Origin: Coleofasciculus chthonoplastes F2-STO-03
GTDB taxonomy: Bacteria; Cyanobacteriota; Cyanobacteriia; Cyanobacteriales; Coleofasciculaceae
Direction of reading: 5' to 3'
DNA: 64,000 nt
Assembly (NCBI GenBank): GCA_040222015.1
Contig: JAVJWO010000072.1
Location: forward strand, 1 to 64,000
Both the position numbers and the translations under genes were made by a program. The notes beneath the pieces were generated by a model. The model saw only the letters and a program-made list of their open reading frames with translations. It made no database searches and was not told the origin of the DNA. This document shows positions 60,302 to 62,269 of the stretch, piece by piece; the first letter of the stretch is position 1; each line of letters begins with the position of its first letter.

Positions 60302-61027
60302 TTAGCCTTTCACAGCTTGACCCGCTTGCTGATCTAAAAGCCACCACAATTCCCCTTGAGGCTGAATGAACCGCGCCGGATAGGTCAAGGGATCAGCTTC
60401 ATCGGCAAAGATTTGAGCCAACGCAGGTTGCTTTCCGGCTCCCGCCACCAGAAACATCACGCAATGGGCTTGGTTAATCAAGGGTACAGTAAAAGTTATC
60501 CGAGGTTGACCATCTTTATTGCCCACAGTCACCCGGCGATCGCAAACCTGTAGCGCTTGGGTATGAGGAAATAAAGATGCCGTATGGGCGTCGTCACCAA
60601 TGCCCAGTAAAATCACATCAAATTGGGGAAACTCGCCAGCAGCTACACCAAAGAACTCCCCCAGTTCAGTATCATGCTTCGAGGCGTCGGCTTCCGGAGA
60701 CTCCCCGTCTGTGGGAATTGGGTGAATATTCGTGGGTGGGATATCAACGTGATCCAACCAAGTCTGACGCGCCATCGCTTGATTGCTATCCGGGTGATCG
60801 GCTGGGACATAGCGTTCATCGCCCCAAAAGATGTGCAGTTTATCCCAGGGTAGATCCTGGCTAGCTAGGGCTTCATAGAGGGGCTTTGGTGTACCGCCCC
60901 CGGCTAAAGCCAGGGTACAGCGCCCTGAGCGTTGGATTGCCTCCTGTATCTTTGTTAGGACAACATCACGCGATCGCTCAATCAGCGCGGCTTGATCAGG
61001 CAAAACTTCGACAATTTTCTTCATCAA
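60302..61027 (-). CDS. pgl: 6-phosphogluconolactonase
   Basis: GGGTPK, WGDERYV and HTASLFP motifs. Confidence 0.96.
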   Translation of the reverse strand: MMKKIVEVLPDQAALIERSRDVVLTKIQEAIQRSGRCTLALAGGGTPKPLYEALASQDLPWDKLHIFWGDERYVPADHPDSNQAMARQTWLDHVDIPPTNIHPIPTDGESPEADASKHDTELGEFFGVAAGEFPQFDVILLGIGDDAHTASLFPHTQALQVCDRRVTVGNKDGQPRITFTVPLINQAHCVMFLVAGAGKQPALAQIFADEADPLTYPARFIQPQGELWWLLDQQAGQAVKG

Positions 61028-61200
61028 TCTGTGATCCTCCTCCTCAACAGGTTACTTGGTCTAGCCGACCATTTCATTAGATAATTGCAGTAGACCCCTA
61101 GGGTAATCATTCAAATATCCATGAGTTACTATGGGCAAGTCATACATGAACCCTAATTGTCCCATACAGTATGGGGTACACTCGGTTCTAGGGTAAAAAA

Positions 61201-61400
61201 TTCCACTACCCCACTGTGTAGACGGCGGGGATGGCTAAGGACTTGCCTTAGTCACGCAAGTGTTGAATAGACCCCAAGCTGCTAGCTGGTATGTACTTCC
61301 AGATACTTCCCTAGCCTGGATGATTATCTACCAACCCTTAGGTCTGGGTTCGTCTAAAAGGTGGAGATCTTGCTAGTAGTGGTATCGTTGGGACTAAAAC
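61201..61400 (+). ncRNA. HEARO/omegaRNA-like structured RNA (IscB/IsrB type) with no associated ORF
   Basis: Six compatible helices and a TCCC/GGGA pseudoknot candidate. The motif order ACTACCCC..GGGG, TTGAATAG, ACTTCC.GATACTTCCCTAG.CTGGA, GGGACT matches my recollection of cyanobacterial iscB/isrB leaders. Confidence 0.7.
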
Positions 61401-61510
61401 AGGTTTTGCAGGTTCCTGGGTTTTTCACCATTAAAAACCTGCTTGTAAACCATAGTGGGCGCGATTTCGGACCCAACGTAAGACGATGGGGTATCCGTCG
61501 CGGAATCAGG

Positions 61511-62269
61511 ATGAAAAGTAGTACTATGTATTCGTCGTTCGCGGGTTTAGCACTTAAAATAGTCGGACTGATCATGATCCTATCGTCCCTGTTGGATTAT
61601 CTGATCCTGATTATTCCCTCTCCTGGTGTTAGCCCCCTTCAGAATGAATGGCAGCTTAATTTAACCACCCAGCTTGTTGATCGAGGTGTTATCCCGATGG
61701 TGGGAATTGCCTTTTTGATAGCAGGATATTGGATCAGCAATAACAGTGGTGGCTCATTACCGGAGCGAAAATCCTCAATCACTGACTTGAGATTTTGGGC
61801 ATTTTTACTCTCCAGCCTATTGGGTTTACTCTTCCTGTTGCTTGTCCCCTTGCACTTTAACAATGTCCGCATCCAAAGCAATCAAGCGATAGAACAGATT
61901 ACTCAGCAAGCCCAGCAAGCTGAAACCCAACTGGAAACGCAAGTTCAGCAAATTGATACTCTGCTTCAAGATCCACAACAGCTAGAACGACTAGACCAAG
62001 CCATTGAAAGCGGTCAAGCTCAAGGAGAGCAACTCCAGCGACTCCAGGCACTCCGAGAACAATTGCAGGCGCTCAGAACAGATCCCGAAGCGATCGCTCA
62101 AAGAACAGAGCAAGCTCAGACTCAAATCCGGGGTCGTAAACAAGAACTTGAGCAACGCGCCCGAACTGAGGCATTAAAAAGAGGTATCCGCATCGGTTTA
62201 AGCAGCTTACTCTTAGCCATTGGCTACAGTATCATTGGCTGGATGGGATTGCGGAACTTGAGCAGTTAA
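61511..62269 (+). CDS. hpsJ: HpsJ-family membrane protein (hormogonium polysaccharide associated)
   Basis: WQ..TTQLVDRGVIPMVG, LLVPLHFNN and a Gln-rich coiled coil. The GTG 61361 start falls inside the RNA element. Confidence 0.75.
   Translation: MKSSTMYSSFAGLALKIVGLIMILSSLLDYLILIIPSPGVSPLQNEWQLNLTTQLVDRGVIPMVGIAFLIAGYWISNNSGGSLPERKSSITDLRFWAFLLSSLLGLLFLLLVPLHFNNVRIQSNQAIEQITQQAQQAETQLETQVQQIDTLLQDPQQLERLDQAIESGQAQGEQLQRLQALREQLQALRTDPEAIAQRTEQAQTQIRGRKQELEQRARTEALKRGIRIGLSSLLLAIGYSIIGWMGLRNLSS

Follow-up and report, generated by a model that had tools for sequence, protein, structure and literature searches.

The closest described relatives of the RNA reported here are the omegaRNAs of IscB- and IsrB-type proteins, the latter being RNA-guided nickases. 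IscB-type scaffolds derive from a transposon end and their guide lies outside the element, so transcription must start beyond the transposon boundary (Meers et al., preprint 10.1101/2023.03.14.532601). In its available text the same preprint also states that the elements known as PATEs (palindrome-associated transposable elements) "often encode omegaRNAs", which are usable only in trans, and gives TTCAT as the target-adjacent motif (TAM) of the Geobacillus elements. For IsrB, the accessible parts of the structural study (PMC9581776) give a TAM of 5′-NTGA-3′ and a solved complex with a 20-nt guide segment and scaffold residues 21-282. The stretch that we analyzed, referred to as the window, comprises positions 1 to 64,000 (64,000 nt) of contig JAVJWO010000072.1 from the cyanobacterium Coleofasciculus chthonoplastes F2-STO-03 (assembly GCA_040222015.1). 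Directly in front of its motility-polysaccharide gene hpsJ lies a mini-element that bears an omegaRNA and no open reading frame (ORF), a real instance of an already known kind of element. This 310-nt stretch, 61201-61510, is very probably a PATE, a non-autonomous miniature of the IS200/IS605 family, and has lost its isrB gene. Below, the window's own genome is labeled G000 (7.7 Mb) and the window contig C72; congeners are G001 to G008, and the runs of the RNA libraries are X1 to X4.

The boundaries of the element were located by searching 60900-61700 against 41 genomes (40 relatives and the own genome) and realigning the matches. In three of the eight congeners (G001, G004 and G006) the flanks adjoin with 0-4 nt between them; exactly 61201-61510 is missing, there is no target duplication, and the empty site reads ...GGGTAAAAAA|ATGAAAAG. 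In G007 the complete stretch, element included, is present at 96% identity overall, and G002 has the element minus 61260-61377. A different leader of 57-62 nt separates the hpsJ ATG from the upstream promoter-like region (the J-Box, described below) in G005 and G008 (G005:C177, G008:C85), and the G003 site is divided over contigs. The left boundary falls between 61200 and 61201, the first base of the RNA scaffold, and on the right the element borders directly on the hpsJ start codon; the insertion is made up of the scaffold, 61201-61401, and a 109-nt tail, 61402-61510. An empty site without duplication, a start at scaffold base 1 and an end at ATGA together identify an ORF-less mini-element of the IS200/IS605 type. 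For an IsrB-type element, the filled and empty sites also confirm three features: a scaffold beginning at the boundary, a guide made of flank DNA and ATGA as the TAM. A preliminary description of this DNA had proposed an omegaRNA at 61174-61450. The scaffold stands, with proper limits of 61201-61401; 61402-61450 turned out to be the start of the separate tail, and the RNA had not been recognized as the end of a 310-nt mobile mini-element sitting on the hpsJ start codon. Two further details of the site were noted in congeners. The G005 leader comes directly after TTCCA, with which the element also begins (its first five bases), and at G007:C141 and G002:C43 the element end is followed by four extra bases before the hpsJ ATG (...CAGGTTCAATG versus ...CAGGATG in the window), which alters the spacing of AGG, a possible ribosome-binding site (RBS) of hpsJ.

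To place the scaffold among known RNAs, we compared it with HEARO (Rfam RF02033, gathering score 83 bits), which has 40 matches in the own genome, 26 above the cut-off and 14 weaker. When the intergenic region was compared with the own genome by blastn, weak collinear matches appeared that fall on two of the sub-threshold HEARO matches, C210:35327-35523 (57 bits with RF02033) and C87:10168-10372 (32 bits). These two copies and those on C162 and C170 resemble each other and differ from canonical HEARO; RF02033 gives weak scores (28-57 bits) to four subfamily members. An nhmmer profile of the four copies, built with the window excluded and searched against the whole genome, yielded 19 matches at E<1e-3, of which 14 have full or near-full length, and it matches C72:61205-61398 over profile positions 5-195 of 196 (E 2.2e-8, 35 bits). 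For a covariance model, R1, we took the 3′ domains of 13 own-genome members, leaving out the window once more, and ran the model with filters off; it matches 61264-61399 over model positions 1-132 of 132 with 56.6 bits (E 1.1e-12), and its runner-up within the window scores 8.8 bits. By homology, then, the window RNA is a member of a second, divergent IsrB-type omegaRNA subfamily in its own genome. The whole IsrB-linked subfamily, with about 14 full-length copies, is missed at the HEARO cut-off in this genome (none above it), so annotation of cyanobacterial OMEGA systems undercounts them.

The assignment to the IsrB type comes from the proteins linked to this subfamily. Six copies in the own genome (on C162, C170, C178, C103, C216 and C179) lie upstream of ORFs of 327-432 aa that start M.RVPV.S..G.PLMPTKPSRARRW; the distance is about 25 nt in five of them, and in the C216 copy the ATG lies about 95 nt downstream. 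All six ORFs encode RRXRR (PF14239) and no HNH family at E<=0.01, whereas the two canonical HEARO-linked ORFs that were examined (C214 and C77) encode RRXRR and HNH; the NCBIfam IscB model gives the C214 protein 301 bits and the C162 protein only 97 bits. Three further members have truncated ORFs, and the remaining members are ORF-less and precede ordinary genes. An IsrB-type ORF also follows a G004 copy that shares 72% identity with the window scaffold. The earlier view of an ORF-less IscB/IsrB-type omegaRNA therefore holds, narrowed to the IsrB type; the homologous copies precede RRXRR-only genes. The own genome also has 17 matches to the Y1 transposase family Y1_Tnp (PF01797), 16 of them above the cut-off. 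The HEARO matches lie elsewhere in the genome, for example at G000:C216:71112-71332, C215:33427-33647, C49:8539-8785, C177:6622-6850 and C40:62869-63138. PLMP-type ORFs follow at least nine of the 40 HEARO matches; many of the rest have no ORF and stand just upstream of genes that look like housekeeping genes, namely metK-like, trigger-factor-like and ribosomal S15, L18 and S21 genes (N-termini judged by eye).

All six helices drawn in the preliminary description are complementary at the positions given there. The folding energy of the region, compared with shuffled sequences, gives z-scores of -0.74 on the plus strand (45/200 shuffles as good) and -1.69 on the minus strand; these single-sequence values are unremarkable, so the evidence beyond chance is comparative. 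We aligned 17 sequences (alignment A2): the window, its ortholog in G007, 13 own-genome members and two congener copies. Because the window is one row, the statistics for its fold are slightly biased. The RNAalifold consensus has 38 pairs, with compensatory changes in 29, and the named helices are the consensus structure. With the pseudoknot included, 92.2% of the cells are paired, compared with 71.9% in shuffles (0/500 as high) and 32-48% when the registers are shifted by 1-3 columns, and 31 of 43 pairs have changed on both sides. Of the 38 consensus pairs, 34 are present in the window copy, compared with 32-38 in the 15 other non-orthologous rows. The pairing of TCCC with GGGA that had been suggested earlier coincides with the covarying family pseudoknot (alignment columns 159-163/268-272), of which the window keeps four of five pairs. 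Here 89% of the cells are paired and two of the five pairs have changed on both sides, from C-G to U-A in three rows and from U-A to C-G in one. Contigs of runs X1, X2 and X4 have C instead of G at 61392, which would break the pseudoknot pair C61309-G61392 there.

The tail has two parts. Its first part, 61402-61442, forms a terminal hairpin common to the window, the C160 copy of the own genome and copies in relatives, and it retains a relic of the isrB start: ATT at 61430-61432 stands as TGGGTTTTTCACC-ATT where ORF-bearing copies have GAGGATTATCTCC-ATG, and the C160 copy reads TGGGATTATCTCC-ATT at the same place. The remainder, 61443-61510, is presumed to be the end recognized by TnpA (the left end by TnpA convention, with the minus strand as reference). 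The minus-strand DNA fold of this right end has a z-score of -2.89 (2/200 shuffles as good), and minus-strand DNA hairpins are predicted near both ends of the element (z -2.89 and -1.98). Searched with a tail profile, the own genome has three matches only: C72, the ORF-less C160 copy and C85:59461-59563, a solo relic upstream of a pilM-like gene. This relic belongs to the window (WIN) type: in seven genomes a 5′-truncated copy, consisting of the last ~60 nt of the scaffold and the tail, lies upstream of a pilM-like gene (G000:C85:59380-59600 and the orthologous places in G001, G003, G004, G005, G006 and G007), and at G000:C85 nothing but the tail persists, with tandem heptamer repeats of the GACGAAT/GACGAAG type in front of it. 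We also considered the tail as a relic of the coding region for the IsrB N-terminus (in-frame LQVP...RRW), beyond the Shine-Dalgarno (SD) and start relic. This was rejected because the C160-type tail has stops and no such similarity and the RRW codons overlap the terminal palindrome.

The unit of scaffold and tail without an ORF recurs at G008:C20 and at C160 of the own genome. We found 14 full or near-full copies of the C160 type, 90-100% identical to the query, in eight of the nine genomes of the genus. Their left flanks are unrelated; they start TTCACCAACC (TTTACCAACC in two, and one is 5′-truncated) and end ...AAAGGAGTTTCG. Elements of this type are about 297 nt long, as at G002:C31:50966-51262, G007:C119:4696-4992, G006:C50:1197-1493, G007:C55:36229-36522 and G001:C128:82072-82344. 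ATGA directly follows the right end in 12 of the 14 copies, the two exceptions being orthologs of a third copy that has it, and all three WIN-type loci end ...GGATGAA with ATGA at the junction. At one locus, G001 and G002 show independent use of two ATGA sites that lie 7 nt apart. The ATGA of the window fits the IsrB motif NTGA, and its complement resembles the TTCAT of the Geobacillus elements.

The junction ATG of the sister copies starts real host genes, as shown by profile matches that begin close to the N-terminus: a prokaryotic metallothionein (PF02069, profile positions 1-51 on residues 3-53), CP12 (PF02672, 1-70 on residues 4-73) and ATP synthase epsilon (PF02823, 1-80 on residues 3-81). 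For the CP12, metallothionein and 59-aa-ORF loci of sister copies, precise empty sites exist in the own genome, with a native ribosome-binding region directly upstream of the ATG; the C160-type copies carry an SD-like AAAGGAG 5 nt before the host ATG (...AAAGGAG-TTTCG). Among 13 insertions (ten C160-type loci grouped by their flanks and three of the WIN type, independence being judged by the analyst), the junction ATG opens an ORF of at least 55 aa in eight, where about 0.8 of 13 would be expected from the genome baseline of 4,381 in 67,767 ATGA sites (6.5%) that are the first ATG of such an ORF. The locus upstream of pilM was counted as a miss, its ORF length being left unmeasured. In four of the eight, namely HpsJ, metallothionein, CP12 and ATP synthase epsilon, the ATG is the true N-terminus by family profile. 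Survivorship may produce part of this excess, since insertions inside genes get lost. At the atpC locus (G000:C69:57240-57345), 58 nt before the gene start of the own genome, a stretch that begins ATGA, are missing from the filled G007 site; owing to these extra nucleotides the locus is no clean filled/empty pair.

Based on these results we tentatively suggest, with somewhat less than even confidence, that the mini-elements follow a start-codon strategy. With ATGA as the TAM they can insert directly before a host ATG-A start; a sense insertion there would let the host promoter transcribe guide and scaffold, and the element end would give a replacement RBS, so the host gene would stay expressed and the insertion would be tolerated. 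Such a preference would be a new twist on securing transcription while sparing the host gene. If it holds, the leaders of hpsJ, atpC and cp12 carry a nuclease-binding RNA that could couple their expression to IsrB. The observation of sister mini-elements directly on host start codons may be new: among the literature matches listed, none concerned start-codon or RBS targeting by IS605, PATE or IsrB elements by title or beginning of the abstract, which is weak evidence that it is unpublished.

The intergenic stretch occupied by the element, 61028-61510, lies between a minus-strand gene of the 6-phosphogluconolactonase type (60302-61027; PF01182 match, 248 bits) and plus-strand hpsJ. As the preliminary description had it, no PLMP or RRXRR ORF follows the RNA: the ORF list agrees, and the product of the next gene is HpsJ by NCBIfam NF050014 (299.1 bits, cut-off 260; residues 8-249 on profile positions 2-253), with no match in a Pfam search. 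The mechanical ORF list starts hpsJ 50 codons further up (61361-62269), at a GTG within the omegaRNA, as no stop interrupts the hpsJ frame in the tail; this start has no support, and all congeners align from the ATG at 61511. Upstream of the element, the motif GGGTACACT, which had been likened to a SigJ-type -10 element, agrees with the published J-Box GGGaAtacT at seven of nine positions, among them the GGG, the A and the last T. Its GGG...ACACT core is retained in seven of the eight congeners, whether filled or empty at this site; in G005 the GGG is replaced by GGT. A promoter role of GGGTACACT is plausible from motif and conservation. Since a J-Box transcript starts 10 bp from the centre of aAtacT (PMC6495340, in its available text, which does not mention hpsJ), the start of the hpsJ transcript is predicted near 61189-61190. 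A sigma-70 promoter scan of 60900-61700 found no sites, and two terminator-like matches both lie outside the element. The features of the locus are collected in Table 1.

Table 1. Coordinates of the element, its RNA scaffold and adjoining host features in the window
Feature	Position	Strand	Basis or remark
IsrB-type omegaRNA scaffold	61201-61401	+	profile match, covariance-model match, covariation
P1 of scaffold	61201-61206/61262-61267	+	one C.U mismatch (61204 with 61264)
Scaffold hairpin	61209-61216/61223-61230	+	as 61209-61217/61222-61230, eight of nine pairs with one A.C
Scaffold hairpin	61232-61240/61246-61254	+	nine pairs, one G-U
Long-range stem	61278-61286/61372-61380	+	nine pairs, two G-U
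Central hairpin	61298-61302/61316-61320	+	five pairs
Pseudoknot	61308-61311/61390-61393	+	
Nested 3′ hairpin	61327-61337/61346-61365	+	six pairs in 61327-61332/61360-61365, five in 61333-61337/61346-61350
Terminal hairpin	61408-61414/61436-61442 (piece 61402-61442)	+	fold z -2.06; encloses relic of isrB RBS region and start codon
Right end of mini-element	61443-61510	+	imperfect palindrome 61460-61502, 8 nt from boundary
ATGA (TCAT on minus strand)	61511-61514	+	TAM of insertion; hpsJ start codon plus one base
Guide-equivalent left flank	61185-61200 (16 nt); 20-nt version 61181-61200	+	host DNA directly 5′ of scaffold
J-Box-like extended -10 of putative hpsJ promoter, GGGTACACT	61174-61182	+	motif and conservation; outside mobile element
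hpsJ	61511-62269	+	252 codons and stop; promoter now separated from gene by inserted element

A PATE on the hpsJ start codon is, as a whole, the explanation that we strongly favor. Its homology, fold, boundaries, empty site and TAM are established, as is the presence of IsrB and TnpA genes in the genome; we infer that such an element would be mobilized by TnpA, co-transcribed with hpsJ and loaded by IsrB. It is non-autonomous and keeps the omegaRNA scaffold as the transposon end adjoining the guide, and its tail keeps the relic of the isrB RBS and start, followed by what is presumably the other transposon end. A Y1 transposase, presumably supplied in trans, would have inserted it without target duplication 3′ of TCAT on the minus strand, that is, directly 5′ of the ATGA that opens hpsJ. 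As the element lies in the orientation of hpsJ, downstream of the J-Box-like promoter, one joint RNA is expected; host transcription would yield about 11-12 nt of flank as the guide, then scaffold, tail and hpsJ. An IsrB made elsewhere in the cell could load this scaffold and, after excision of the element, nick the scarless empty site, which combines a guide match with ATGA. Nicking of the empty site would favor re-installation of the element, the selfish activity known for the family and the only one that the anatomy of the element predicts.

Contigs from four metatranscriptome libraries lie on the region. They carry no strand, ends, level or proof of RNA, and gaps in the cover of single runs have no meaning; the contigs are contiguous across the element into hpsJ. 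Run X2 covers 61109-61470, X3 61253-61403 and X4 61370-61562, and an X1 contig joins 61145-61212 to 61335-61763, which corresponds to a strain with a 122-nt internal deletion (61213-61334). Together with the deletion of 61260-61377 in G002, this makes two independent internal deletions of the scaffold in close relatives, with the ends and hpsJ kept. Within the element, the window differs from G007 by 8 substitutions in 310 nt, a divergence not clearly lower than that of the flanks. Since the split from G007, the helix pair 61233-61253 has changed on both sides, being G-C here and T-A in G007, in G002 and in the family consensus.

Several observations weigh against the explanation by a PATE with an IsrB-type omegaRNA. 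No Rfam family matches anywhere in the window at gathering score, and at E<=10 the region 60950-61650 has no HEARO match, its sole match being an archaeal snoRNA model (E 9.3). None of the 40 RF02033 matches in the genome lies on C72, and a profile hidden Markov model of 24 canonical own-genome HEARO copies (A1), run with filters off, has no match at the locus; the HEARO covariance model that the preliminary description had named as a check thus does not find the RNA at either threshold, and a covariance-model match is provided by R1. Within its subfamily the window copy is the lowest-scoring full-length member (35 bits versus 53-154). In its fold, P1 contains a C.U, the central hairpin an A.C and the pseudoknot end a T.T, which leaves the pseudoknot with 4 bp rather than 5, and 61364-61366 reads GAG where GAC is otherwise conserved in the subfamily. 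The IsrB-linked scaffolds of the own genome are only 43-58% identical to that of the window, and the sole own-genome relative of its clade, on C55, has a 5′-truncated scaffold and an internally deleted ORF; with no closer partner than these, a cognate IsrB may be lacking in this genome. The transcript from the J-Box start would carry only about 11-12 nt of guide, as against 20 nt in the solved IsrB complex, and one RNA-library contig already begins before the predicted promoter. That the tail is a transposon end is presumed from a predicted hairpin; none of the isrB ORFs in the own genome was found to be followed by such a tail, so no full-length parent has been identified. Finally, presence and absence among the congeners fit gain and precise excision alike. 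The degenerate IsrB element on C55 (G000:C55:9400-9950) has an ORF that joins a PLMP-type N-terminus to a C-terminal part, with the RuvC region apparently deleted.

The missing Rfam and canonical HEARO matches, together with the unremarkable folding z-scores, are what one would see if there were no omegaRNA here at all, its helices being due to chance or to an ordinary leader structure and the HEARO-like similarity being spurious. This is scarcely credible and already contradicted, given that a profile and a covariance model, both built without the window, match with E 2e-8 and 1e-12, that each helix is a covarying family helix, and that the insertion boundary falls at scaffold base 1. A stand-alone omegaRNA might instead send IsrB, in a regulatory or defensive role, to some host or foreign sequence distinct from its own empty site; a trans-acting guide RNA, with a guide from the 5′ flank at about 61181-61200, had been proposed earlier. 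Stand-alone omegaRNAs working with IscB in trans have been reported (Altae-Tran 2021, as cited in the available text of PMC9581776), and the genome has six intact-length IsrB-type ORFs. The 5′ position of the guide is borne out, in that the scaffold starts at the insertion boundary and the sequence before it is host DNA; that sequence is then merely the flank of an insertion, and the predicted transcript would contain little of it. Searches of the own genome (phage and plasmid targets were not searched) found 15 other sites within two mismatches of the 16-nt guide and five other exact sites for a 12-nt version, none of which is followed by ATGA. One two-mismatch site, C177:16721, is followed by TTGA and has a mismatch at guide position 15. 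We consider a trans-acting role of this kind very improbable.

Another possibility is domestication, in which the scaffold would have been co-opted as a structured 5′ untranslated region controlling hpsJ during hormogonium development, for example through IsrB binding or RNA processing that gates translation. The element does lie in sense between the conserved J-Box-like -10 and the hpsJ start, RNA-library contigs bridge its tail and hpsJ, and the helix pair G61233-C61253 has changed on both sides against the T-A of G007, G002 and the family consensus. Moreover, the PLMP domain of DtIsrB touches the Shine-Dalgarno sequence in the terminal hairpin (PMC9581776, accessible parts), and exapted TnpB regulators exist, to go by the title of one paper. 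Yet the element is missing in G001, G004 and G006, where hpsJ follows about 20 nt after the J-Box, and the two independent deletions, in G002 and in the X1 strain, destroy the fold and leave hpsJ in place. The 8 substitutions in 310 nt do not set the element clearly below its flanks, elements of the same kind precede unrelated genes, and the relic SD in the terminal hairpin is 80 nt from the hpsJ ATG. Because of the two deletions in relatives, and because no close cognate IsrB is intact in the genome, domestication is unlikely; as a specific account of this leader it seems to us improbable, and neither of the two roles put forward in the preliminary description finds support. We therefore return to the PATE: the element may be regarded as a selfish mini-transposon, perhaps still usable by IsrB, and nothing indicates a host function. 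That this particular copy still works as a guide in this strain is doubtful; otherwise it would be an inert passenger in the hpsJ leader. With the insertion, hpsJ has a structured 320-nt leader in some strains that close relatives lack, a natural experiment on leader effects.

Compared with the described systems, the locus is closest in its RNA to the IsrB omegaRNA of Desulfovirgula thermocuniculi, as far as the available text of PMC9581776 describes it. Both have a 5′ guide derived from the flank, and the ATGA of the window fits NTGA. Both have a long-range stem with embedded hairpins and a pseudoknot from a loop to the 3′ strand; helices S1-4 and SL1-8 and the adaptor and nexus pseudoknots were matched by analogy only. 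The terminal hairpin stands at the place of the isrB Shine-Dalgarno sequence, and sister copies precede RRXRR-only proteins of 327-432 aa. Unlike the IsrB locus, the window has no isrB gene downstream, only the relic of its start, and its scaffold is about 200 nt (about 240 nt with the terminal hairpin) rather than the roughly 300 nt reported. With the IscB-type HEARO RNA (RF02033) it shares a P1 that closes the 5′ domain, the long-range stem, a central hairpin with a conserved loop and the same genomic role; it differs in that the window copy has no match to the model and the proteins linked to its subfamily have no HNH. Like the stand-alone trans omegaRNAs (Altae-Tran 2021, via PMC9581776), it has no adjacent nuclease gene and nuclease genes elsewhere in the genome, whereas its nearest nuclease-linked scaffolds there are only 43-58% identical, and trans use here is putative.

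As an element, it resembles the PATEs set out in the available text of Meers et al. (10.1101/2023.03.14.532601): it has no protein gene, keeps both presumed ends, carries an omegaRNA for use in trans and leaves a scarless empty site without target duplication next to a short TAM. Those PATEs relate to Geobacillus ISGst1 and ISGst5; the family of the window is IsrB-type and cyanobacterial and, unlike them, its element keeps a relic of the nuclease-gene start and the family sits on host start codons.

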